Shown in pieces: positions 14,676-64,000 of a stretch of 64,000 nucleotides of DNA; positions within the stretch are counted from its first letter, which is position 1, and each line of letters opens with the position of its first letter. Under the pieces are notes generated by a model that saw only the letters and a program-made list of their open reading frames with translations, made no database searches and was not told the origin of the DNA. Source of the stretch: a virus; the IMG/VR virus record IMGVR_UViG_3300044632_002025, one strand, 5' to 3'. The position numbers and the translations under genes were made by a program.

Positions 14676-15632
14676 CTAAAGATGAGAATCTTGGTCAGAA
14701 TCAAAAAAGTCCTTTGCTTCTAAATCGGAGTTAAATGGCTTAACCCATTGGGTAATTTTTTGGCGGATTTCAGTCCCATTAAGAATCCTGGTATCTTTTT
14801 CCATAGCAGAGTCACCAGACTCACCTGTAAAAAATTTACGGGCAGGAACCCAACCAATAAACCCGCCACACATCACAGATGCGTCGATGGCTACGGCAGT
14901 ATGCTCTAAAGCTGACCAATGCTTTGAGCTAACTAGACGTAAAAATAGTTTAACATCCTTTTCCACATCCATATTCCCTTCGTGGTTTAGGTAAGACACT
15001 CTCGCACAACGAGAGGCTGACAGAGCAATGAGTAAAAGAGTATTACCTTTGTACAGTTCTCTTTCCTCATGGGTTACATAGGGCAGATGCAAACCACCAT
15101 CTGATAGGATATAAGCAGAACATTTGTGGTAAGCCTCAAGCATTAAGCGGGCTACTTTTCTAATCTCTGGCTGGGCTTTTTCAGAAGTACGAAGTTCAAA
15201 AAAGTTGAACCATTGAGTGCCGGTCAGCACCACATCCACCATTTGAAAAGGCTCAGTAAGTCGGTTCACAATTTCTTTATGAACCCCAAGCAGGTTCAAT
15301 AAATTAGCCCAAAACCGTTGGGAGTGCATGGAGCAGAACCATACAAGGTCAGCTAATTTAGCCTTTAGACCCGTCAGGGGCTTACCAGCTTGCATTCCTG
15401 ACTTATTCGTACCCCATTGGTCAGGGTGATAGGGATTCTCTACTAATTTTCGGTCTTTTTTCTTAATCGGAACAGCCCGATTCGACTCGGTATTAGAGGA
15501 CAAAATACGGTGTTTATTGAGTTGAGCTAAGACAAATCGGGGAATACGAATTTGAAAAGTGGTAATAGTGTCGCCTGTGATGGAATTGACACTTTGTTCG
15601 ATGACCTTAGCGTGGTATTGGGTAGGTTTCAA
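14676..15632 (-). CDS. thyX: FAD-dependent thymidylate synthase (ThyX-like)
   Basis: Carries a ThyX signature variant, KHRILSSNTESNRA (canonical RHRxxSxxxxSxR). Also has downstream ...SASRCARVSY... and ...HWSALEHTAV. The TTG start overlaps the sigma gene stop (TTGA). Confidence 0.65.
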   Translation of the reverse strand: MKPTQYHAKVIEQSVNSITGDTITTFQIRIPRFVLAQLNKHRILSSNTESNRAVPIKKKDRKLVENPYHPDQWGTNKSGMQAGKPLTGLKAKLADLVWFCSMHSQRFWANLLNLLGVHKEIVNRLTEPFQMVDVVLTGTQWFNFFELRTSEKAQPEIRKVARLMLEAYHKCSAYILSDGGLHLPYVTHEERELYKGNTLLLIALSASRCARVSYLNHEGNMDVEKDVKLFLRLVSSKHWSALEHTAVAIDASVMCGGFIGWVPARKFFTGESGDSAMEKDTRILNGTEIRQKITQWVKPFNSDLEAKDFFDSDQDSHL

Positions 15633-16156
15633 GAATTTGCTCCTAATTTCTTAATTTTTCTGACTTCTGACTTATAAGTTCGCAGGGTAAGACCCAGAGT
15701 TTTAGCTATTACCTCTTGGGTAAGACCCATTAGACGTTTGCGGACAATTTGCTTTTGGAGGGGGGTGAGTTTTGACCAGAAGAGGTTCAGGGTCATTTGG
15801 TATTCAGTGGAATCGACTAGGGATGCCATATTGTCTAGGGGAAAATCTCGAAGTTGGCATTCCATGACATAGGTTTTGTGCCGAATAAGGCGGAACCTTT
15901 TGCGAATATCCAACCAGCAATAGCTGGTGAGCGTTCCTTTGTTGGGGTTCCAAGTCTTAAGTTTTTCTAGAACCAGACAAAGACCTTCCTGAAAGTAATC
16001 CTCTCCTTTGACTGACGTATCACGCATAGCACGACGGATAGCGGGGATTTGGGATTTAACCAAATTTAGTTTAGACGTTTCACAGGCTTGTTGTTCGATG
16101 GTTAGATGACAGTATTCCATGACAGAGGTTTTGAATTTTAGACGGCTTAACCCCAC
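15629..16156 (-). CDS. sigma-70-family RNA polymerase sigma factor (phage-encoded)
   Basis: The region 2-like segment is GTLTSYCWLDIRKRF. The region 4 HTH-like segment is LTPLQKQIVRKRLMGLTQEVIAKTLGLTLRTYKSEVRKI. The start is uncertain: GTG 16156 or ATG 16120. Confidence 0.6.
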   Translation of the reverse strand: MGLSRLKFKTSVMEYCHLTIEQQACETSKLNLVKSQIPAIRRAMRDTSVKGEDYFQEGLCLVLEKLKTWNPNKGTLTSYCWLDIRKRFRLIRHKTYVMECQLRDFPLDNMASLVDSTEYQMTLNLFWSKLTPLQKQIVRKRLMGLTQEVIAKTLGLTLRTYKSEVRKIKKLGANS

Positions 16157-16164
16157 TCCACAAG

Positions 16165-16290
16165 CTAACTGCTCGTTTTACCCTAGTTAAAGGGGGTTTT
16201 AACCCTGATTGATTAAGCTTGGTTCTCACTTAACCAGTTTTTTGTTGGGTTAACCCCAGTATAACAGAGAGTAGATTAGGTGTCAAGGGG
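16165..16290 (-). promoter_or_regulatory. early promoter plus ~95-nt conserved leader of the sigma gene (copy A)
   Basis: Minus strand: CCCCTTGACACCTAATCTACTCTCTGTTATACTGGGGTTAACCCAACAAAAAACTGGTTAAGTGAGAACCAAGCTTAATCAATCAGGGTTAAAACCCCCTTTAACTAGGGTAAAACG. About 93% identical to 52543..52662 on the plus strand. Confidence 0.75.
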
Positions 16291-16300
16291 TTTGAGAAAA

Positions 16301-16319
16301 AATCGCCCAAAGCTAAGTT
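16301..16319 (+). promoter_or_regulatory. late-type motif site L5
   Basis: AATCGCCCAAAG-C-TAAGTT, 27 nt upstream of ATG 16346. Confidence 0.5.
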
Positions 16320-39358: not shown

Positions 39359-39982
39359 TTGTTTATGAACACTGATAACTGGTTTATGCTCGTTCCTTCT
39401 AGAATAGCCTCCTCCAAATTAGGGCTTCACCCCCATACCCTTAGAAAATATTTTGATGACGGTTTGATTAAGGGGATTAAAAACCCCGCAGGTCAACGAT
39501 ATTACGATGTTGAATCCTATTTAGCCGACCCTCTTGACAAACCCTCAGTTATCTGTTATGCTAGGGTTAGTTCAAGAAAACAGTCTGCTGATTTGGCTAG
39601 ACAGGTCGATTTCTTGAAATCAGTTTACCCCGATTCGGAGATTATTACAGATGTCGGTTCTGGACTTAACTTCAAAAGAAAAGGTATTCAAACCCTATTG
39701 GACAGATTACTCTCAGGAGATTAGTTCACTCTTGCTATCTCCCACCGAGATAGACTCTGCCGATTCGGATTTGAATTGTTCCAATACCTTTTCCTCAAGA
39801 ACGGTGGAACAATCGTGGTTCTCAACAATACTCAAACAAGTCCCGAACAAGAACTTACCCCCTACTTACTATCAATCCTCCATATTTTCAGTTGCAGAGT
39901 CTACGGACTTAGAAAAAACAACAAAAATATCGAGGAAGATAAGACTTTACCCCGACAAAACTCAACAAAATCTACTGAATGA
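39359..39982 (+). pseudogene. tnpA: IS607-type serine recombinase TnpA interrupted by an in-frame TAG
   Basis: MerR-like HTH (LGLHPHTLRKYFDDGLIKG..AGQRYY) and the catalytic-Ser motif VICYARVSSRKQ. A TAG at 39722-39724 is followed, in the same frame, by FTLAISHRDRLCRFGFELFQYLF...SPEQELTPYLLSILHIFSCRVYGLR. Track ORFs 39359..39724 and 39776..39982 share the frame. Confidence 0.8.
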
Positions 39983-41081
39983 GCTAATCTCTCAATATCG
40001 GTTTGTTTACAATAAAACTGTAGATTTGCTGATAAACGGTAAAATTGGGGCTAATTGTGATTTAAAGACTAAGAAAGAAAGAAAAGGTTTGTCAAGCTAT
40101 GACATCCGTGACACATTCTTTCAATTTTGGTTGGAGAAACACACTTGGTTAACCAATTGCATAAACATAAATACAGTAAAGGAGGCTATCACCGAAGCTA
40201 TCAATGCCCAACAAGTAGGGTTTGCCCAATTAAAAGCGGGGTTAGTTGAAAGGTTTGAGTTAAAATTCAAATCTAGAAAAAAGCCCCGACAAACTATCAA
40301 CCTAAAAAAGGAAATACTCTCAGCTAAGGGAGTGTTAGCCCCCCGAAACCTAAAACTAGAAACCCCCCTAAAATCAGACACAAGGGGTAGTTTTGATGGT
40401 CTAACCCTCACAACTACTGGGGGATTGTTCTACCTAATTTATACTGAAGATATTGCTAATAATCCAGAAGTCGAAAACCAAGACCTAAAGATTGTAGCAT
40501 TAGACCCTGGTGTTAGAACTTTCCAAACTATTTTCTCGTCTAATGGGGTTTTCGGTAAATTTGGTCAAGAAGCCATTAAAAGATTGGCTAAACTATGCCA
40601 TAAAGCAGACAAAATCCAATCTAAAATAGCTAAAACCAAAAACCAAAGTCGGATTAATTATCTAAGAATGTGGCAACAACGAACCACATTAAAGATAAGA
40701 AATCTGAGGAAAGAACTCCACCACAAAATTAGTAGATTTCTAGTAGATAACTTTGATGTAATCCTGCTACCCTGCTTTAACACCGGTGAAATGGTTAAAA
40801 AGAAGGACAGAAAAATCAATAAATCTACTACCCGTTCAATGTTAAATTTTGGACATTATGAGTTTAAGGAATTATTAAAGTTCAAAGCCAATAAATTTGG
40901 TAAAAAACTAATAATAGTTTCTGAGGCTTATACCTCCAAAACCGTATCATGGACAGGGGAAATAATAGCTAATCTAGGTGGGAGGAAAGTAATCAAATCT
41001 CAGAGTAACGAAAGTTTAGACAGAGATTTAAATGGAGCCAGAGGAATCCTAATAAAATTCTTAACTGAGCTACCCCAATAG
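39651..41081 (+). CDS. tnpB: TnpB (OrfB) RuvC-like nuclease of the IS607 element; start uncertain
   Basis: Contains KIRLYPDKTQQNLLNELISQYRFVYN (typical TnpB N-terminus), LDPGVRT (RuvC-I Asp), SEAYTSKT (Glu) and DRDLNGARGI (Asp). The conserved core begins near 39925. The first ATG, at 39651, would overlap tnpA by about 330 nt. Confidence 0.75.
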   Translation: MSVLDLTSKEKVFKPYWTDYSQEISSLLLSPTEIDSADSDLNCSNTFSSRTVEQSWFSTILKQVPNKNLPPTYYQSSIFSVAESTDLEKTTKISRKIRLYPDKTQQNLLNELISQYRFVYNKTVDLLINGKIGANCDLKTKKERKGLSSYDIRDTFFQFWLEKHTWLTNCININTVKEAITEAINAQQVGFAQLKAGLVERFELKFKSRKKPRQTINLKKEILSAKGVLAPRNLKLETPLKSDTRGSFDGLTLTTTGGLFYLIYTEDIANNPEVENQDLKIVALDPGVRTFQTIFSSNGVFGKFGQEAIKRLAKLCHKADKIQSKIAKTKNQSRINYLRMWQQRTTLKIRNLRKELHHKISRFLVDNFDVILLPCFNTGEMVKKKDRKINKSTTRSMLNFGHYEFKELLKFKANKFGKKLIIVSEAYTSKTVSWTGEIIANLGGRKVIKSQSNESLDRDLNGARGILIKFLTELPQ

Positions 41082-41412: not shown

Positions 41413-43293
41413 TTATTCCATCCCCGAAACCATAGATTTAACTTCCTCTAGGGGGATTTCCAACTTCTGCGATAATTCAGCCATTAAGGTATCTAAAATC
41501 CCTTGTAGGTTATCTCCTCCCTCAACATACCCTACACCGTTTAGAACCTCAACTACAGTAGCATCAGTAGCCATAGCTAAAGCACTTGCCACTTCCTGGA
41601 TTTGCATATCAAGGTCAACTGCTACCGTGGCTCCTGTTTCACCTTCAGCTTCAGCTTCTGGTTCTGCTTCTGCCTGAATCTCTTGCATATTTCGCATTTG
41701 TTCAGATATGTTTTCCCATTCTGCTTCAGGGTCAAATCCTAACAATTCTTGTGCTGTCTTAACTGATACAATCTGATTCAGGACTAAAGAACTTAATTCC
41801 TCCATAGATAGTTCAAAATGTTCTTCTGGTTTGAAAGATTCCTTAGTTTCATTTTGAATAGTATTTTGTTCATCAATAGAAGCATTAGGAGTTAAAGCTC
41901 GTTGTAAATCTTCAGTTACCAATCTCATCGCAGTGTCAGCGATTGGTGTTTCTAGTTTCTCCAATCGGGCAAGGCGGTCTACCTTAGCATCAACAGAATC
42001 TAGAACGAACTCATTCAACCCTGAAACTGAAATCATTTCGGCTTTATCAGGGGGTAAACCGTGGGCTAAGGCTACCAACTTATAACAGTTCTCTAGGAAT
42101 CTTAACAATTCCTCACCATAGGCGGTCAAAGCTTGTTCTTGGCTGATAAAGTCCATACTTTTGGCCACACCCGACTCTTGCATTGGTCTATCAGTACCAG
42201 CAGAAATACCGTTACTAAATACTAAATCTTTGATTCTAGATTCAATACCTTGTAAATAGCCTGTAATAGTGGAAATCGCTGAACCAGTAGTCTCATTAAA
42301 GCTAAATCCTGACCCAATCAAAACTCTATGATTACCAGTTTGTTGTTTGGCTTCTTCAATGTCCACCATTTTATCAACAGTTTCCGCCATCGGAGTAAAT
42401 AGTCTTTGAATCTGTCCAGCCAAATTAGCAGTATAGGAAAGATTATTGTGAACTCGGATGTGTTCTAGAACCAAATAAATGGCTTCTTTGACTACCCATA
42501 GATTCTCTGGGGCTTGAATCTTAACTACCGGAATACTATCTCTACCATGTTCAATAGTTGATTTCTTACTGACCATGTATTCTTTAGTTTCTAAGTCTAA
42601 ACCCATGACAGGACTAGGTGTACCATCTTTTGCTAATTCTACTGGACACGAATAAATATTTATTTCTTTATCATCAATAAAAGTCCAGTTTAGGTATACT
42701 CTAGGAATACCCACTGGGTCATATTCAGTCATTAACTCTCTAATTTTTATCCATTGTAACCGTCCATCCTTTTCGTCATAGTGGACTACTTTACAGGGGT
42801 CATATAGGGCAATATAAGGCATTAAACCTTGTTCATCTTGTTCCTTACGGTTTTTAGGTAGGTTCTCAGTATATTCAATATCAATTACTGCATAAACTCG
42901 TTCATACTTCAAAAGTCTGTAAAATACTTCTTTAATAAAGTTCTTTTCTTTTTGGTTATTTCCATTTACGGATTCCCTAAATTTAGCCCAGAACTTCCCC
43001 TCGTCTCCCTGAGTTCCCAAACCATTAATAACATGATTTGAAGCAGTCATCCGATTCATTAATTGGGCTAAACATTGCCCTAAAATAGGTGTGTAGGTAA
43101 AAATCTTTTTGCGGTACTTATAGACTTCTGCATCCTCATCTGGCTTTTTGCAGAGGTATTTCTCCAGATTTTCCCTAATCTGATTACCCCCCGCTAACAA
43201 ATCGTCAGCAGTCTCATAGATGTATTTTTTAGCCAGTACATCGGGGTGATAAGTTTCTAACTGATTAAACGGGACTTTCTCAGGGTATCGCAT
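41413..43293 (-). CDS. portal protein (inferred)
   Basis: 626 aa, immediately downstream of the large terminase in the same operon. It has an acidic C-terminal region. The call rests on position and size. Confidence 0.6.
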   Translation of the reverse strand: MRYPEKVPFNQLETYHPDVLAKKYIYETADDLLAGGNQIRENLEKYLCKKPDEDAEVYKYRKKIFTYTPILGQCLAQLMNRMTASNHVINGLGTQGDEGKFWAKFRESVNGNNQKEKNFIKEVFYRLLKYERVYAVIDIEYTENLPKNRKEQDEQGLMPYIALYDPCKVVHYDEKDGRLQWIKIRELMTEYDPVGIPRVYLNWTFIDDKEINIYSCPVELAKDGTPSPVMGLDLETKEYMVSKKSTIEHGRDSIPVVKIQAPENLWVVKEAIYLVLEHIRVHNNLSYTANLAGQIQRLFTPMAETVDKMVDIEEAKQQTGNHRVLIGSGFSFNETTGSAISTITGYLQGIESRIKDLVFSNGISAGTDRPMQESGVAKSMDFISQEQALTAYGEELLRFLENCYKLVALAHGLPPDKAEMISVSGLNEFVLDSVDAKVDRLARLEKLETPIADTAMRLVTEDLQRALTPNASIDEQNTIQNETKESFKPEEHFELSMEELSSLVLNQIVSVKTAQELLGFDPEAEWENISEQMRNMQEIQAEAEPEAEAEGETGATVAVDLDMQIQEVASALAMATDATVVEVLNGVGYVEGGDNLQGILDTLMAELSQKLEIPLEEVKSMVSGME

Positions 43294-52345: not shown

Positions 52346-52609
52346 ATGTACATTATAATTACACCGTGCGAAACATATCAAACCCCAGTTTTGACAGAGG
52401 TTGAGCAACAAGGTCTGGAAAGTGGTGAGTACACCATACTCAAGGTAATCTTCGATGGCTCTGATGAAGTAGTCCATCTAGATTGGACGGTACTCCAGGA
52501 TTGGATTGAACAGAAAAAACAGGAAAAAAGAAATAACCTAAACCCCTTGACATCTAATCTACTCTCTGTTATACTGGGGTTATTAACCCAACAAAAACTG
52601 GTTAAGTGA
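52346..52609 (+). CDS. hypothetical small protein
   Basis: 87 aa. SD AGGA. The C-terminal 20 codons run into the next promoter cassette. Confidence 0.45.
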   Translation: MYIIITPCETYQTPVLTEVEQQGLESGEYTILKVIFDGSDEVVHLDWTVLQDWIEQKKQEKRNNLNPLTSNLLSVILGLLTQQKLVK

Positions 52610-52662
52610 GAACCAAGCTTAATCAATCAGGGTTAAACCCCCTTTAACTAGGGTAAAGCGGC
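52543..52662 (+). promoter_or_regulatory. promoter plus conserved leader, copy B (no ORF behind it)
   Basis: TTGACA (52547-52552), 17 nt, TATACT (52570-52575). About 90 nt nearly identical to the sigma-gene leader follows. It ends just before the next promoter at 52697. Confidence 0.75.
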
Positions 52663-52696
52663 AGAGAAAAGCCTAAAAAGAATTTTCTCAAACCCC

Positions 52697-52772: not shown

Positions 52773-53687
52773 ATGACAACCTCAACTGCACAAGTACCCT
52801 CCGTAGTTTCCTTTGATGAAGTAATTTCCTTATACTCTGGTAAGCTTTGGGACAAGGTTTATACCAATGTTCCAAACTCTAAGATTGGACGTACCTTAAC
52901 CACCCAACTCAGTTACATTTTAAACCAAGTTGGTGAAAAGTTCGACCCAGATGGCTCCATTCTGACAGTAAAAGCGGAAAATGGGGTGTTCAAAGCACTC
53001 TATAGCCCCACCCTTTATAAAGTTTCTAACACATTATTGCGGGGTTCGGCATACGCAAAAGCAAACCCCAGCTTGTTTGAAGACGAACCTGCTGAAAACG
53101 GTGAAACTGGTTACAACCTAGGAGTTCGTTTCAGTCAAACCTTGTTCGTACCCTACATGGCTTTCGCCAATATCGAAGGCATCGCATCCATGCCTTCCGA
53201 CAGTGGCATCACCATTGTCCTTCCCGAAAGCGAAGCGTTCCCCGAAGGTTTGACCTTTGACTTGACCGCACGTTTTACTGAAGCCGACATGGAAAAACGT
53301 AAAAACGATTCCATAAAAATGCGTCGGGCATTCACAAAAGGTACTTTCTTTACTTATTTGGCTGAACCCCCGACTGGTGGTGGTTCTGCTACACCCCTCC
53401 GTGATTTGGAAGACGGTACAGAATACACTATCGTAGGGTATGAATTTAAAGAAAGTGACAATGGTGGATTTTTCACCCTCACCACTGAAGATGGTATGAA
53501 GATTATGTCCAACAAAGCCATTGCCCGTACTCTTGAGGCTGGCCCGGTAGTCACCCCTACTAAAACCTGCTTACTCCGAGTAGTAAACAAAACAAAAATG
53601 GCAAATGGAAATACTAAGGTTAATGCGTCTCTAGTCGTACCCTCTGAGAATTTCCCCAGCCGTGGAGACATCGACCTAGATTGGTAG
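52773..53687 (+). CDS. hypothetical, abundant early protein (single-stranded DNA-binding candidate)
   Basis: 304 aa with strong codon bias and two consensus promoters upstream. The C-terminal region looks beta-rich and ends in the acidic-aromatic tip GDIDLDW. The SSB idea is inference only. Confidence 0.45.
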   Translation: MTTSTAQVPSVVSFDEVISLYSGKLWDKVYTNVPNSKIGRTLTTQLSYILNQVGEKFDPDGSILTVKAENGVFKALYSPTLYKVSNTLLRGSAYAKANPSLFEDEPAENGETGYNLGVRFSQTLFVPYMAFANIEGIASMPSDSGITIVLPESEAFPEGLTFDLTARFTEADMEKRKNDSIKMRRAFTKGTFFTYLAEPPTGGGSATPLRDLEDGTEYTIVGYEFKESDNGGFFTLTTEDGMKIMSNKAIARTLEAGPVVTPTKTCLLRVVNKTKMANGNTKVNASLVVPSENFPSRGDIDLDW

Positions 53688-57461: not shown

Positions 57462-58769
57462 ATGTTAGGAACAGCCAACAAAATATTAAAAACTTCCACA
57501 GTAGAAGTCGAAATGGACTTCAGAGACTTTAATAACGTCTCTATCGAAGCTTTAGAGGCGGAAATTGTGGATACCGACACTTTTATCGCCGTTCACGAAG
57601 AATTTAAACTTTTTGTAGAGAAAGTTGTCACACCCACTGGCTATACCAGCCGTCATTTCGTGGACATCTATAAACTCCTAAAAAAACTTTTACCCGTTTA
57701 TAACCCCCCGAAAACTAAGGCTACTTCCAATAAGGGTCTACAAGCCGCTTACAACGCCGCTATGGGTTCCGTATTAACCACTATGGTTAACACTCCCTTC
57801 AAAAAGAAAACAGAAGCCGTAAAACTAACTGGCTCTCAGACTGTTGCGGCGGGTAGTGCTGTCCTATTACAATTACAAATTGCAATGGATTTTACCCACG
57901 AAATTTTTCATGATTTAGTTAGAAGTGTTGAGAAAGGAGAGCCTAGACTTAGACCTAAAGAGGTTCGTAGTGCGGATGATTTAATCCGTAATGAGGATTT
58001 TTTTGCTTACTCTTGCATCCCCCCTGAAGATGTAGATGGGAGAAAGGCCTATATTGACCAGACTATGGCTCACTGGCGTGAACACACCAACACCTATCTT
58101 GACTATATGTTCTCCATTCTAGAGTTCAGCGAAAATAAATTTAACCGCCCCTGTGGTGAACTTGCCGAGGCTCTCCATACGTTTAAGGCTGAACTTGATA
58201 AGAAGGGTATCTTTAGAGCTTGGGTTAATTTCTATGATAACGTAGGAGCCGTTAAAACCTACTCTAGTATGGGCATACCAATTGAACACGAGGGTTGTTG
58301 GGGCAATCAATTGGGGAGAGACCTTGATAACAATCCCCTTTCCATTACTATGCTTTTAGAAAAGATGTTCCCATGGCAAGTAGGAAAATCCTACAGTAGA
58401 AGGCAAATAAATGCTTGGAACAAAGGCAAATGTGAGGTTCTTTTTTACGAGTGGGTTTCCCAATTCGTTTATTCTGACGACCCATTAAACTACGCTCCTT
58501 ACTCTTTAAAGCTTAGAAAACCCCCCAAATCTGATAAGGATATTTTTAAAGCCGCTTGGCAGAATCTTTATAATATCCAGAGACAAGTCCTAAACAAGAT
58601 GGAGCAAAAAGTAAAAGCCACTTACGTCCGTGTTTCTGCTGACTTCTCTAATCTCACTTCCTCAGTCAAAGAAGGGTTCGCTAAATTCTGCGGTGGTCAA
58701 GTGGTAAATTTCTCCGTCCTAGAAACAGAAGACTCAGGACTAGAACCAAACTTCACCATGTCAACGTGA
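57462..58769 (+). CDS. hypothetical protein
   Basis: ORF track, 435 aa. No family recognised. Confidence 0.5.
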   Translation: MLGTANKILKTSTVEVEMDFRDFNNVSIEALEAEIVDTDTFIAVHEEFKLFVEKVVTPTGYTSRHFVDIYKLLKKLLPVYNPPKTKATSNKGLQAAYNAAMGSVLTTMVNTPFKKKTEAVKLTGSQTVAAGSAVLLQLQIAMDFTHEIFHDLVRSVEKGEPRLRPKEVRSADDLIRNEDFFAYSCIPPEDVDGRKAYIDQTMAHWREHTNTYLDYMFSILEFSENKFNRPCGELAEALHTFKAELDKKGIFRAWVNFYDNVGAVKTYSSMGIPIEHEGCWGNQLGRDLDNNPLSITMLLEKMFPWQVGKSYSRRQINAWNKGKCEVLFYEWVSQFVYSDDPLNYAPYSLKLRKPPKSDKDIFKAAWQNLYNIQRQVLNKMEQKVKATYVRVSADFSNLTSSVKEGFAKFCGGQVVNFSVLETEDSGLEPNFTMST

Positions 58770-58929: not shown

Positions 58930-59328
58930 TCAATTGCCATCGGGAATTACCTCCGTAGTCACTTCCGGGCTTACATTAGCCAATCCTTCAAAAAATCTGT
59001 GTACAATTAGCCCATCGGGGGACTTCATTTCACAGTCATATACCCAAGCATCCCTCCCAACTATATTCCCCATTGCCGCCGGTAATAAGGTTGTGGTCTG
59101 ATAAACCATAATTGGAGTTATTAATGTGTGGTTCTCATAGGTAATATCCCCTATTACGAAATCATCATTAACTATTTCAAAGTCTCCTTCTGCCAATAGA
59201 GTTCCCTTATGTTTTCTCTTAATTTGCCAAGCGAACTCCCAGTCACTATAGTTACCCGCTAATAGTAAAGATTTACCCCTATAGCTGGCTCCTTGTCTTA
59301 TTAATATGTTAACTTTTATTGGTTCCAT
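58930..59328 (-). CDS. hypothetical late protein
   Basis: ORF track, 132 aa. Late motif L16 lies upstream. Confidence 0.5.
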   Translation of the reverse strand: MEPIKVNILIRQGASYRGKSLLLAGNYSDWEFAWQIKRKHKGTLLAEGDFEIVNDDFVIGDITYENHTLITPIMVYQTTTLLPAAMGNIVGRDAWVYDCEMKSPDGLIVHRFFEGLANVSPEVTTEVIPDGN

Positions 59329-59357: not shown

Positions 59358-59371
59358 CTTTGGGCGCATAG
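59358..59371 (-). promoter_or_regulatory. late-type motif site L16
   Basis: Minus strand: CTATGCGCCCAAAG, 30 nt upstream of ATG 59328. Confidence 0.45.
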
Positions 59372-59412
59372 GATTTTATCAATCTTAAACAGGGTGGGTA
59401 TTGAGAAAAATC

Positions 59413-59424
59413 TATACGCCCAAT
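59413..59424 (+). promoter_or_regulatory. late-type motif site L17
   Basis: TATACGCCCAAT, 35 nt upstream of ATG 59459. Confidence 0.45.
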
Positions 59425-59458
59425 GTCCTGTACAGAAGCATCATTCCCCCAATTTATA

Positions 59459-62400
59459 ATGGCCAGACGCAAAGGTAGAAAATTATACTCCCCTAATTCC
59501 CCCCAAGACCCCAGGAAATCCCGTGGCGGTAATATTAAAGATGGTATGGGGGTTGTTAAAGGTACTAATGTTAAAGGGGAAGCTTTTTCCTTTGACCCGT
59601 CTAAGCACAAACGAGACCCCTTGACTGGTAAATGGGCTACTAAACCTGATGTGGTTAAGCCCCAAAAAGATAAGAAAAAAGCCACTAAACCCACTTCTTC
59701 CGAGGCTAAAAAAACTAAACCATCCTCCCCCTTCGCCAAATTTAGACAAAGGGTTCGTGATGCTTTAAAACAACAATTAATTAATTACGCAAAAAATAAA
59801 TCAGATAAGTCTAAATCCACACCGTCTAAACCTGATTCTGTGTCAACTGTGCCAGTTAATGCTAAACCTATTGAGAAAAAGAATTTTACCCTGGATGACT
59901 ATACTCAAAGAGGACAAGAAATTAGCTCTAAATATGGGTTGAGTGATAATAAGTTCTTAGGCAGACTGGCGAAGTTAATAGACAAATTACTCAGTTTCCA
60001 AGAAAAACCGTCATTAACGCCTTCTGACATGGAGGAACTAAAAAAAATTAATGACGATATATTGGAGACACAAAAGAAGGCCTATGAAGACTTTGAGAAA
60101 AAAGTTGAACAACTTTTAGACGACTATAGAGAAAATGCTTCAGATTTAGACATGGATAAAGTAATTTTAAAGACTAGATTTGTAAGAAATGGTTTTCCAA
60201 GAGATTTAAATGAGGACGTTGATATGGTGAGGGAAGCCTATAAAGATTTTCACTATCTCACTAACGGCAATATTATAGGCTTTCCCAATTTGTTGGATGT
60301 TAACAATGAAGGTAATAGCTATGCCGTTTACCCTAATAAACCCGCACAAAGTTCAATAGTCAGCATTGGGACATCTGGACAGGGGGAAGTTCCTCTGAGG
60401 CAGGCGACCTTCCATGAATTGGCGCACCTAGTTGAGCTTCATGTTCCTGGTCTCAAAGAAGCGTCTCTAGAGTTCCTGAAAAAACATAGTTACACTGGAA
60501 CTCTAGAGAATTTTGATTACCTGGGTGTACCTATCTCAGGATATAAGGGGGACTTTATAGATGAATATGTGGGTAGATTTTACGTCCAAAATTCAGCCAC
60601 AGAGGTTTTATCTACGGGATTTGAACGTTTAAGTAATCCAGATAGCGCATTTAAACTTTTTGTAAATTCTAATCATCACTTTAATTATATTCTTGGTGCG
60701 CTTGACCGTGTTAACTCTACTAGAAATTCTGAATCTTACCGGCTACCAAATAAATCTGTTAGGAAAATACCAAATAAATCTGCTGAGGAAATACCAAATA
60801 AATCTGCTGAGGAAATACCAAATAAATCTGCTGAGGCAAAGAATTTGACCCTAGATAACTACACTCAAAGAGGACAAGAAATTAGCTCTAAATATGGGTT
60901 GAACGATACTAAAACACTAGGAAAACTCCAAGAACTAAGTGGTATACTAAGAGAATTTAACACTAAAATAATGGGTATGTATGACGACCCTACTTTAACC
61001 GACTCCGACAGAGAAGAAGTTATACGTCAATTTGACGAGGTTTTCAAAAAACACAAAAATCTTGAAAAGAAATTTAGGGCAAAATTCGAGAAAAATGTTC
61101 AAAATCTTCTAGAATCCTACAAAGAAGCTAGTAAAGATTTAGACTTAGAGAAACTTTTGGAAAATTCTAAATTCACATTGTATGGGCAAGAACTAGATAA
61201 ATCAGATAGGAACGTGGATTTAGTGAAAGAAAGTGTTAAAGATTTCCACTCTCTTACTAAGGGGTTTCTGGGAGAATTGGTTCCTATGATTGACGTAGAC
61301 AGAAATGGTTCTAGTTACGTCCGCTACCATCCAGATAAGCCAGAAAAATTGACACATATTAGAATCGGGGCTATTGGACTCGGTGATGAAGTATTTAAAC
61401 TTCAGACCTTCCATCAAATGGCTCACATTCTGGAATCCCACATACCTGGACTCCTAAAAGCATCTATGGAGTTCCTGAAAAAACATAGTTATTCGGGGCA
61501 AGAGGAAGACATCGAACACAGGGGTATGACCTACAGAGGGTATAAAGGTGATTTTATAAATAATTATGTGGGTAGAACATACAACAAAGGGGTATCAGCC
61601 ACAGAGGTTATATCTACAGGTTTTGAAAGACTTCGTAACCCTACAGACGCATTTACTCTCTACACAGAATCAAACCATCACTTTAATTTTATTCTTGGGG
61701 TTCTAGATAGTATTAACCAGACTGAGCCGCCTAAAACAAAATTAATGAGTAGCTTAACTCAAAAAAACTTAGACCCTAAACCAGAACCCGCAGAGCCAAA
61801 ACCAACTACTCCTAAACAGGTTTCCAAAGAGTACACTGATACTATTAATTCTGCAAAATCTAAAATCTCCCAGTATAAACTGGATAGACTTGTCAAAGTT
61901 TTTGAAACTCAAGATGCCCAAATCAATGCGGAGCTAAAATCTTTAGACCCTAAAAACCCTGAAGACGTTGAAAAAGCCCAAAAACTTTTTGCTAGAAAAC
62001 GTAAACTGAAGCAGTCTCTTGATACTTACCTTGAGAAACAGATGAACTTATTGTATCAAGAACTGCTTGATAATAATAATTCTGTAAACTCTGACCTCCT
62101 AGTGGGACAAACTAATTTTCAAATAGGTGAATACACTAAAAATCTTAAACCAGCCAATACTGAAGACCCTATCTATAAAACTCACACTCCTGTAATTAGT
62201 AAGGCTTTGGCTGAATTTCATAAACTTACAGGGGGGATTCTGAACAACTTAGTCCCCCGTATAGGACTCAGCGAAAAAAAAAGAAGTTGGGCTGGATTCG
62301 ATGCAAAAGAACCCCAAAAAAATAATTATCTTTCTATATCTGTAACCCGTTCCAATGATGTTAAACCCTCAGTTTTTCATGAAGCGGCACACCTGTTGGA

Positions 62401-62722
62401 AGGGTCTGACCCTAAATTTGCCAACTTAGCTAAGGAATTTTTAGCTAAAAATAGAACTTCAGATGAACTTAAGCAAATAAAGGGTTATCCTGCTGGCGAA
62501 GTGGCTTACCCTGGAAACTGGGTTCACCCCTATGTGGGTAAAAATTATGAAAATGCCCCCTCCACAGAAGTAATTTCAATGGGTATAGAACGATTTGCTA
62601 GTCCTAGAGATATGGCGGAATTTTATTTTAAAGATAAGGAACATTTTGCTCTAACTTTGGGGATTATAGAATCCCTTAAAGTCCCTGAACATCTAAAACC
62701 AAAACCTGCTACAATATATTAG
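59459..62722 (+). CDS. large late protein: basic N-terminus plus three tandem ~320-aa HExxH (zincin-like) modules
   Basis: Track ORF trimmed to ATG 59459, because motif L17 overlaps the earlier start. Modules start near 59879, 60839 and 61800. Metal-site motifs are FHELAHLVE (HELAH 60413-60427), FHQMAHILE (61412-61426) and FHEAAHLLE (62378-62392). Each is followed by ..YVGR.Y...(S/A)TEV(L/I)S.G.ER. Confidence 0.6.
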   Translation: MARRKGRKLYSPNSPQDPRKSRGGNIKDGMGVVKGTNVKGEAFSFDPSKHKRDPLTGKWATKPDVVKPQKDKKKATKPTSSEAKKTKPSSPFAKFRQRVRDALKQQLINYAKNKSDKSKSTPSKPDSVSTVPVNAKPIEKKNFTLDDYTQRGQEISSKYGLSDNKFLGRLAKLIDKLLSFQEKPSLTPSDMEELKKINDDILETQKKAYEDFEKKVEQLLDDYRENASDLDMDKVILKTRFVRNGFPRDLNEDVDMVREAYKDFHYLTNGNIIGFPNLLDVNNEGNSYAVYPNKPAQSSIVSIGTSGQGEVPLRQATFHELAHLVELHVPGLKEASLEFLKKHSYTGTLENFDYLGVPISGYKGDFIDEYVGRFYVQNSATEVLSTGFERLSNPDSAFKLFVNSNHHFNYILGALDRVNSTRNSESYRLPNKSVRKIPNKSAEEIPNKSAEEIPNKSAEAKNLTLDNYTQRGQEISSKYGLNDTKTLGKLQELSGILREFNTKIMGMYDDPTLTDSDREEVIRQFDEVFKKHKNLEKKFRAKFEKNVQNLLESYKEASKDLDLEKLLENSKFTLYGQELDKSDRNVDLVKESVKDFHSLTKGFLGELVPMIDVDRNGSSYVRYHPDKPEKLTHIRIGAIGLGDEVFKLQTFHQMAHILESHIPGLLKASMEFLKKHSYSGQEEDIEHRGMTYRGYKGDFINNYVGRTYNKGVSATEVISTGFERLRNPTDAFTLYTESNHHFNFILGVLDSINQTEPPKTKLMSSLTQKNLDPKPEPAEPKPTTPKQVSKEYTDTINSAKSKISQYKLDRLVKVFETQDAQINAELKSLDPKNPEDVEKAQKLFARKRKLKQSLDTYLEKQMNLLYQELLDNNNSVNSDLLVGQTNFQIGEYTKNLKPANTEDPIYKTHTPVISKALAEFHKLTGGILNNLVPRIGLSEKKRSWAGFDAKEPQKNNYLSISVTRSNDVKPSVFHEAAHLLEGSDPKFANLAKEFLAKNRTSDELKQIKGYPAGEVAYPGNWVHPYVGKNYENAPSTEVISMGIERFASPRDMAEFYFKDKEHFALTLGIIESLKVPEHLKPKPATIY
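60746..60841 (+). repeat. four tandem 24-nt repeats (PNKSAEEI)n in the linker between modules 1 and 2
   Basis: ccaaataaatctg(t/c)t(a/g)agg(a/c)aa(a/t)a is repeated four times. It encodes PNKSVRKI, PNKSAEEI, PNKSAEEI, PNKSAEAK. Confidence 0.85.
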
Positions 62723-63357: not shown

Positions 63358-63492
63358 AGAATCAAGCAAACAAACACGGAAAACAGGATGACGGGTAACG
63401 CTAAACAACCAATCGAAACAACACAAATTCCTGTATCCGACGCTATAATTAGTTATCAGTTATCAACTATTTGGGACTAACAAAAAAAAAAA

Positions 63493-64000
63493 ATGAACCA
63501 ATTTACCGAAAAACTACCCAATCAAGTCACACTAGAGATGGTAAGCTTACCAGCAGGTGAGTTTCTCATGGGTTCTGCTGAAAGCGAGGATGAAAAGCCT
63601 CCACACCAAGTTAAAGTCAACAGTTTTGCTATTGGGAAATATCCCATTACTCAAGCACAATATCAAGCGGTAATGGGAACCAATCCCTCTTATTTTTATA
63701 ATAATCCCCAAAATCCGGTAGAAAGGATTAGTTGGAATGACGCTCAAGCCTTTTGTCAGAAATTGAGTCAAATAACCGGCAAAACCTATCGCCTACCCAC
63801 AGAAGCGGAATGGGAATATGCTTGTCGTGCGGATACAACTACTCGCTATTATTTTGGTGATGTTGCCAATCAGTTAGGAAATTACGCTTGGTATGAAGGA
63901 AATTCTCAAAATACAACTCATCCTGTGGGTCAGAAAAAGCCCAATGCTTGGGGACTATATGACATGAGTGGTAATGTTTGGGAGTGGTGCGAGGACTATT
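63493..64000 (+). CDS. FGE-sulfatase (SUMF1/formylglycine-generating-enzyme family) domain protein, 5' part
   Basis: ATG 63493. Reads MNQFTEKLPNQVTLEMVSLPAGEFLMGS...VNSFAIGKYPITQAQYQAVMG...NPVERISWNDAQAFC...YRLPTEAEWEYACRA...KKPNAWGLYDMSGNVWEWCEDY. Open to the window edge, so it is absent from the ORF track. Confidence 0.8.
   Translation, partial: MNQFTEKLPNQVTLEMVSLPAGEFLMGSAESEDEKPPHQVKVNSFAIGKYPITQAQYQAVMGTNPSYFYNNPQNPVERISWNDAQAFCQKLSQITGKTYRLPTEAEWEYACRADTTTRYYFGDVANQLGNYAWYEGNSQNTTHPVGQKKPNAWGLYDMSGNVWEWCEDY

Follow-up and report, generated by a model that had tools for sequence, protein, structure and literature searches.

A late-class phage gene encoding three tandem zincin-like modules, the middle one with Gln in place of the predicted catalytic Glu

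The 64,000 nucleotides (nt) of viral DNA studied here come from IMG/VR record IMGVR_UViG_3300044632_002025 and are referred to below, as a whole, as the window. Our subject is the gene at 59459-62722 of the plus strand, whose product is composed of a basic N-terminus of 140 amino acids (aa) followed by three tandem modules, M1, M2 and M3, each of ~300 aa. An earlier note on this DNA had proposed a late protein built from three zincin-like modules, and as a whole that observation is confirmed, with small corrections given below. The gene contains the following features, with their basis in brackets.

59459..62722, plus strand: coding sequence, 1087 aa plus stop (list of open reading frames, ORFs; start from comparison with the relatives L001 and L002)
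59459..59878, plus strand: Lys/Pro/Ser-rich basic N-terminal region, aa 1-140 (composition: 20% Lys, 10% Pro, pI 10.6)
59879..60766, plus strand: module 1, aa 141-436, a helical plus a zincin-like catalytic subdomain (AlphaFold2, AF2, model; motif positions)
59903..59942, identical at 60863-60902, plus strand: 40-nt stretch opening modules 1 and 2, encoding TQRGQEISSKYGL (exact match)
60413-60436, plus strand: HELAHLVE of module 1, with the predicted metal-binding Glu382 at 60602-60604
60744..60836, plus strand: 24-nt tandem repeat in the M1-M2 linker (Tandem Repeats Finder, TRF: 3.9 copies, 95% match, score 163)
60839..61768, plus strand: module 2, aa 461-770, same fold by homology (48% identity to M1)
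61412-61435, plus strand: HQMAHILE of module 2, catalytic Glu replaced by Gln; Glu716 kept at 61604-61606
61769..61828, plus strand: Pro/Lys-rich linker, aa 771-790, LDPKPEPAEPKPTTPKQVSK (composition; precedes module 3 in all relatives)
61829..62719, plus strand: module 3, aa 791-1087, canonical and kept in all relatives (AF2 model of the catalytic subdomain)
62378-62401, plus strand: HEAAHLLE of module 3, with Glu1037 at 62567-62569

The three-module architecture is evident from the comparison of the modules with each other. Pairwise BLASTP gives M1 and M2 an identity of 48% across 295 columns (E 5e-91), against 24% for each of them with M3 (E 2e-20 for M1 and 8e-28 for M2), in agreement with the earlier description of M3 as the more diverged copy. 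The metal-site motifs begin at aa 319 (HELAH), 652 (HQMAH) and 974 (HEAAH), and each is followed after ~60 residues by (S/A)TEV(L/I)S.G.ER, a combination that had been noted before. The identical 40-nt stretch was also correctly reported: it occurs exactly twice, 960 nt apart, where zero such matches are expected by chance. The 960-nt spacing that had been attributed to M1 and M2 holds at the module starts but not further in, where small insertions in M2 shift the register to 996-1002 nt. Likewise, the linker between the two had been described as a VNTR-like (variable-number tandem repeat) array of 4 x 24 nt. The array is real, lies in frame and encodes (I/L)PNKS(A/V)(E/R)(E/K), but its copy number is constant in all five three-module copies examined, which gave no sign of a variable-number repeat. 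One- and two-module relatives lack the array.

In the window ORF list the ORF spans 59423-62722 on the plus strand. Translation from the upstream ATG would, in L001, be in another frame and end at a stop; given this stop and the change of frame between the first and second ATG, 59459 (MARRK...) is therefore the conserved start. No Shine-Dalgarno sequence is found at the gene. The Lys-rich character of the first ~140 aa stands as first described, and the region is, judging from its composition, probably disordered. It has no family match in Pfam or PHROGs, and a word-indexed protein search returned nothing useful for it. Compared with L001 it is mosaic, with 72% nucleotide identity at 59460-59609 and 97% thereafter. 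The region also contains HKRDPLTGKW at 59606-59635 (aa 50-59), a short H-x-R-D-x3-G-(K/R)-(F/W) motif that occurs five times, in HPRDENGRF-like form, in the 1625-aa family member P0045.

Structural models were obtained with AF2 for the core of module 3 (32 sequences; predicted local distance difference test, pLDDT, 91.5; predicted template modelling score, pTM, 0.87) and for the whole of module 1 (49 sequences; pLDDT 91.9; pTM 0.90). The module 3 core runs through a helix (5-18), three strands (29-33, 39-41 and 52-56), the helix bearing HExxH (64-78) and a helix (133-142) after Glu132, with a further helix and an insert between the HExxH helix and the Glu-bearing helix; the order of elements in module 1 is the same. 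The first ~110 residues of module 1 are modelled as three helices, of which one extends over 39 residues. What had been called a coiled N-part is helical but not a free coiled coil, since in the model it packs onto the catalytic part to give a single globular unit. Conservation of this helical subdomain beyond the immediate clade was tested and is not significant.

With Foldseek, the lists of PDB matches of both models are topped almost wholly by zincins, all matches being weak: they include Certhrax (probability 0.91), lethal factor (0.44-0.89), M32 and M3 peptidases, the minigluzincins selecase and abylysin, MATCAP, astacin and CapP, with M32 carboxypeptidase, lethal factor and Certhrax among those of the whole module 1. 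The lowest E is 0.07 with the core and 0.04 with the whole module. Searches of PDB chains with the protein or with a 32-sequence profile gave no sequence match, and the Pfam matches below threshold in family members are predominantly to zincin families. By the order of the modelled elements and by their motifs, the modules are assigned to the zincin fold class, gluzincin type, in line with the earlier proposal that each is zincin-like. The two His of HExxH and the Glu of TEVxSxG, the latter present at the same distance in all three modules, are the predicted metal ligands, and the Glu of HExxH is the predicted general base. HExxH is kept in modules 1 and 3, and module 2 has HQxxH.

The family to which the modules belong was revealed by an exhaustive HMMER search with module 3 against representatives of 50% identity clusters (E ≤ 0.001), in which 1453 representative clusters match; the word-indexed search had found near relatives only. 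What the module has in common with the family is its C-terminal stretch of ~165 residues. Alignments of 148, 74 and 32 sequences show no variation at the H, E, H and E of HExxHxxE or at the Glu of TEVxSxG, so that the metal-site His and both Glu are conserved in homologues. Module 3 is the copy nearest the family consensus (29-38% identity). Pfam and NCBIfam returned nothing significant with the protein or the 32-sequence profile, and the three matching PHROGs families are all of unknown function. Membership in three known groups had been raised for comparison, namely the polyvalent-protein metallopeptidases (MPTase-PolyVal, PF18818), ImmA/IrrE and SprT-like proteins, and none gives a match above threshold. 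The window protein does not match PF18818, for which the best value is a sub-threshold E of 0.006 in 1 of 32 family members; M78 (ImmA/IrrE) reaches E 0.0017 and the SprT-like family E 0.014, each in 1 of 32 members and below threshold, and BFVD matches to M78 or SprT-like families have probabilities of 0.28-0.91 with E ≥ 0.09. We conclude that the module family is distinct from every curated model searched; it may correspond to one of the 12 metallopeptidase (MPTase) clades of PMC5512222.

Against this background, the Gln of module 2 stands out. In 150 other representatives, 158 of 159 domain instances have HExxHxx(E/D), and the remaining one is a fragment missing that region. Gln at the general-base position is seen in module 2 only (0 of the 158 other complete domains) and is fixed in 5/5 three-module copies; the replacement pointed out earlier is therefore both real and exceptional. 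Module 2 still has its two His, the Glu that comes after HQxxH and the Glu further downstream. In zincins such as thermolysin, neprilysin, lethal factor and the clostridial neurotoxins, exchange of this Glu for Gln largely spares metal and substrate binding and abolishes catalysis. Since HExxH is kept in all 158 complete domains, the Gln is unique in the sample and predicts a module that binds metal but is inactive.

The domain partners of the family provide clues on its likely setting. According to Pfam, Phage_Mu_F is present in 18 of 74 full-length homologues, three separate portal families each match one member, and the other partners are LPD3, ART-PolyVal, InPase (the polyvalent-protein pyrophosphatase) and inteins. 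A local profile finds MuF in 24 of 150 sequences, and the domain forms the C-terminal end in 121 of 151. In BFVD there are 8 matches at E ≤ 0.001, mostly to uncharacterised phage proteins; one of these, and the next match just under the cut-off, are labelled phage head morphogenesis. Genes with the domain have been deposited under the labels 'virion structural protein' (Planktothrix phage PaV-LD ORF081R), 'minor capsid/head protein' (Lactococcus phages), 'head morphogenesis' (Bacillus phages) and 'structural protein' (a Flavobacterium phage), which we give as deposited. PaV-LD has two adjacent paralogous genes with the domain, ORF080R and ORF081R. The link to ejected and polyvalent proteins that had been suspected is supported at the family level by the MuF, portal, LPD3, ART-PolyVal and InPase fusions. 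The window protein itself has a single domain type three times over and so not several distinct domains; the homologues with LPD3, ART-PolyVal, InPase or MuF do combine them. A further domain that was considered, Ct_MAD (PMC5576092), was built from MuF C-terminal extensions matching the C-terminal region of COG2369.

Many single-module members have a Cys-rich start, which takes the form C-x8-C-x3-C-x6-C in PaV-LD (L029 4112-6357) and has the consensus G-x2-C-G-x2-I-x3-K-x-C in alignment A5. The window protein lacks it. This start may be a small zinc-binding head.

Several copies in one protein are a recurrent theme among such proteins. The five closest distant relatives have two copies each, both with HExxH. 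Copies within one protein are closer to each other than to the copies of other proteins (39-47% in three proteins), which suggests that each duplication arose on its own. In a relative of 2799 aa three stretches match, of which the first two are weak or partial. Iyer et al. 2017 (PMC5512222) report between one and five zincin-like domains in a single polyvalent protein. Given these 1-5 copies and the two copies in all five distant relatives, the novelty previously seen in the multi-copy arrangement was overstated. What is unusual here is a protein that is nothing but three modules, one of them without the catalytic base.

Copy number also differs among near-identical phages, a comparison that the earlier note had proposed. 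In four metagenome contigs the three-module gene recurs at 99% identity. L001 has two modules, one resembling M1 and M2 (an A-type module, with HEAAH) and module 3. A further relative, L007, has module 3 only, the first 21 residues of an A module being fused directly to the linker before it; the deletion junction falls immediately after ...SSKYG, within the region of the 40-nt stretch that encodes TQRGQEISSKYGL. One, two or three modules are found in this group, and module 3 is always present. The single A module of L001 ends in ...RLPSKP-DKTKLMSS..., the first half of which resembles the end of module 1 (...RLPNKS) and the second half the end of module 2 (...PKTKLMSS). This hybrid end places the duplication junction exactly at the present 24-nt repeat. 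DNA identity between the window and L001 is 97-100% for the flanks and module 3, against 59-76% in the A-module region; at the protein level the A module of L001, M1 and M2 lie at roughly equal distances from one another (48-56% identity). Such a pattern suggests that divergent alleles replaced this region by recombination, and does not resemble point mutation in place. A diversity-generating retroelement was considered as the source and rejected, the divergence extending over ~2 kb at 59-76% identity and including indels as well as the difference of an entire module.

From these comparisons we envisage a two-module ancestor in which the canonical module 3 was accompanied by a single divergent A module. 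This A module would then have been duplicated in tandem, with expansion of the 24-nt repeat at the junction, and A modules would have been gained, lost and replaced among near-identical phages, as an arms race would produce.

The ratio of nonsynonymous to synonymous change was also considered. For M1 and M2 it is 0.22-0.37 (dN/dS), and carries little weight with a dS of ~1.1-1.3, near saturation. Module 3 is 96% identical between the window and L001, with 14 nonsynonymous and 0 synonymous differences, and seven module 3 alleles together show 19 nonsynonymous and 3 synonymous codons. In neighbouring genes the proportion of synonymous differences (pS) is 0.04-0.12 and the corresponding ratio (pN/pS) 0.05-0.57. 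The nonsynonymous changes of module 3 include a cluster at aa 1029-1033 (window 62543-62557), a loop directly before the Glu ligand. The ratio in module 3 is elevated and compatible with positive or relaxed selection. The highest pN/pS among the flanking genes, 0.57, is that of the 435-aa ORF upstream (57462-58769, plus strand), which is patchy relative to L001, at 77-99% identity per 150 nt.

Upstream of the start codon lies a short motif that the gene shares with others of the window, as follows.

59412..59423, plus strand: promoter-like late-class motif CTATACGCCCAA, 36 nt 5' of the start codon, invariant in L001 and L002
59360-59371, minus strand: mirror copy of the motif, serving the divergent 132-aa gene
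7260, 10465, 16301, 26063, 26923, 35771, 36938, 54385 and 59414, plus strand: TAACGCCCAA-type motif sites
39322, 47883, 51242 and 59369, minus strand: TAACGCCCAA-type motif sites

Sites of consensus TAACGCCCAA were sought as WNNCGCCCAR; the window has 16 of them where 3.8 would be expected, a count reached in 0 of 100 shuffles. The motif lies 20-50 nt 5' of the scaffold, tape-measure, several tail-region, endolysin, 132-aa and three-module genes and of several unknown genes. Early-type genes nearby have TTGACA-N17-TATACT instead. The late-type motif first noticed at this gene is thus common to the scaffold, tape-measure, tail and endolysin genes, which supports a shared regulatory class, presumably a late one. 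The motif may be read by the phage sigma factor encoded at 15629-16156 (minus strand). The 132-aa gene (58930-59328, minus strand; PHROG 1084) shares a divergent control region of 130 nt with the three-module gene, in which two copies of the late motif stand in mirror orientation ~40 nt apart (59360-59423), and from this arrangement the two genes look co-regulated. Elsewhere in the window a repeat of ~125 nt is found at 16174-16302 (minus strand) and 52540-52664 (plus strand), with 93-94% identity, and in three copies in L001. It consists of a near-perfect TTGACA-N17-TATACT promoter and a conserved transcribed leader of ~90 nt, and has no match to an Rfam family; one copy faces the sigma-factor gene and the other a 304-aa ORF at 52773.

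The window is siphovirus-like, with a 2612-aa tape measure, tail genes, a major head protein, scaffold, portal, large terminase, muramidase and sigma factor in a scattered order, the three-module gene following a primase and the 435-aa ORF. A 476-aa transposase (39651-41081, plus strand) lies just downstream of the portal gene (41413-43293, minus strand), a spot where a MuF-type gene often sits. Nearly all relatives of this transposase, at 30-40% identity, come from filamentous cyanobacteria (Calothrix, Nostoc, Stigonema, Plectonema), and together with the missing Shine-Dalgarno sequence they point, with low confidence, to a host that is probably a cyanobacterium. Downstream of the three-module gene are two paralogous genes with an FGE-sulfatase domain (window 63434-64000; L001 13141-14595); in L001 a nucleoside deoxyribosyltransferase gene comes next, and both kinds of gene are unusual as phage cargo.

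Taken together, these data lead us to favour, with modest confidence, a late, probably capsid-packaged and ejected effector composed of several zincin protease modules, in which module 3 would be the conserved active copy, module 1 divergent and probably active, and module 2 metal-binding and inactive. The protein would be made late, alongside virion and lysis proteins, and be packaged in the capsid, perhaps by means of its basic, disordered N-terminus. It would then be ejected into the cell together with the DNA, where modules 1 and 3 would cleave host or competitor proteins. Module 2, with metal ligands but no general base, would bind without cutting and so might act as an adaptor, a substrate trap or a decoy. 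The late motif and the deposited labels of relatives lend indirect support to delivery by the virion.

Several points weigh against this effector. We know of no member of the module family with a demonstrated substrate. The protein has neither a MuF domain (Pfam) nor a portal domain, and no MuF gene is found in the 64-kb window, where none of the ORFs of ≥60 aa matches a local profile made from 24 family members. The gene adjoins the primase and other genes of DNA metabolism; yet head, tail and lysis genes are scattered in this genome. Modules 1 and 2 lack the Glu of an ExAYP segment and the Asp of DPEHF, both more than 90% conserved in the family, as does the single A module of L001, and module 1 may by the same token be impaired as well, rather than fully canonical. 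No fold match in the PDB reaches E 1e-3, and the family assignment thus rests on motifs and fold class. The 19:3 ratio in module 3 is elevated but not significantly above neutral, and relaxed constraint is possible. Finally, the presence of the protein in virions is something that we infer.

An alternative is that the protein stays in the infected cell as a late protease, processing phage proteins (for example in head maturation) or degrading host proteins. This we regard as unlikely, if worth serious attention: no prohead protease is recognised among the head genes of the window, the protein has no MuF or portal anchor, and late expression suits a morphogenetic role equally well. However, the partners found across the family are carriers of head-internal or ejected cargo, not scaffold or capsid fusions, and modules so variable in sequence and copy number would be unexpected in a housekeeping maturation enzyme. 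To our knowledge, the known prohead proteases also have other folds (serine proteases of the HK97 and herpesvirus types, and ClpP-like), which counts against this alternative.

A structural or ejection protein without enzymatic activity, using the zincin fold as a scaffold, for example in encapsidation or in the building of a conduit, and the metal for stability only, seems to us rather improbable. The invariance just described for the general-base Glu, found in 158/158 other domains, argues for selection on chemistry beyond metal binding, and such a role leaves the loss of A modules unexplained. It would nevertheless accommodate the retention of module 2 despite its lost catalytic base and the other conserved residues missing from modules 1 and 2, and it has a parallel in the virion RNA polymerase of phage N4, whose HExxH region is required for encapsidation and which is packaged unprocessed (PMC5512222), the C1 domain of N4 also having HExxH (PMC13434306). 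A cell-wall metallopeptidase helping the tail across peptidoglycan, as a 2026 preprint proposes for the metallopeptidase domain in gp47, a packaged polyvalent protein of phage phi24B (10.64898/2026.04.10.717836), is very improbable given that fold and motif resemble protein-cleaving zincins (lethal factor, M32, M3) with no M15 or M23 among the listed fold matches, that a muramidase is already next door and that the protein has no cell-wall-binding domain.

The packaged and ejected protease that we favour has parallels in several known systems. Among solved structures, lethal factor (M34) and Certhrax are the best recurring match to the modules. In lethal factor a helix with HExxHxx(D/E) is followed by a Y-G-(R/K)...E segment with the third ligand. 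Pannifer and colleagues are said to have described, in 2001, a duplicated, catalytically dead zincin-like domain in lethal factor that is reused for binding. This dead domain offers a precedent for module 2. The similarity is nevertheless weak (E 0.07-0.7; template modelling score, TM, 0.3-0.46; 10-14% identity; for the M34 catalytic domain, E 0.15-1.2 and TM 0.34-0.46), with no sequence match in the PDB searches; the helical subdomain differs, and delivery here would be by the phage capsid, not protective antigen.

The MPTase domains of polyvalent proteins (PMC5512222) share with the modules the succession of N-terminal helix, three-strand sheet, HExxH helix and Glu-bearing helix, a remote link to lethal factor, the MuF, ART and LPD partners and the occurrence in multiple copies; for one phage clade an acidic residue three positions past HExxH has been described (PMC5512222). 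They differ in that one copy in the window is a predicted pseudo-enzyme, and PF18818, which stems from that work, gives no match. A metallopeptidase domain is found in 20% of the MuF toxins studied by Jamet et al. 2017 (PMC5576092). Many homologues of the module are MuF fusions and the cargo varies in a cassette-like manner, as in the MuF polymorphic toxins, but MuF is absent from the window protein, the window gave no sign of lysogeny, and no immunity gene was identified at the locus, where no search was aimed at one. In PaV-LD, a phage of a filamentous cyanobacterium, ORF080R and ORF081R have the same C-terminal module (VHELAHWLD... STEILSMG) as tandem duplicates; unlike the three-module gene they are two separate genes, each with the N-terminal Cys-rich motif, and both keep HExxH. 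By analogy, the protein would in its mode of action come closest to the zincin domains found in polyvalent and MuF-cargo proteins, and it is not a new kind of system, since multi-zincin-domain proteins are already described.

A bolder form of this proposal, which we hold to be doubtful, is that the modules are exchangeable protease 'warheads' and that the dead middle module binds a host target, an inhibitor or a protease-sensing defence protein as a decoy or adaptor. If true, module gain, loss and replacement would be the visible sign of an arms race still under way, and the protein would be the first phage-delivered pseudoprotease in tandem with active paralogues. The module family is very large and is carried by head and portal proteins in many groups of phages, and it is therefore probably among the commoner enzymes that phages inject. 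Within it, the locus amounts to a natural experiment, with one canonical copy, two divergent copies, one of the copies without its catalytic base, and relatives with one to three copies, and it provides ready-made constructs with which to look for the substrates of these proteases and to see whether the inactive copy binds them too.

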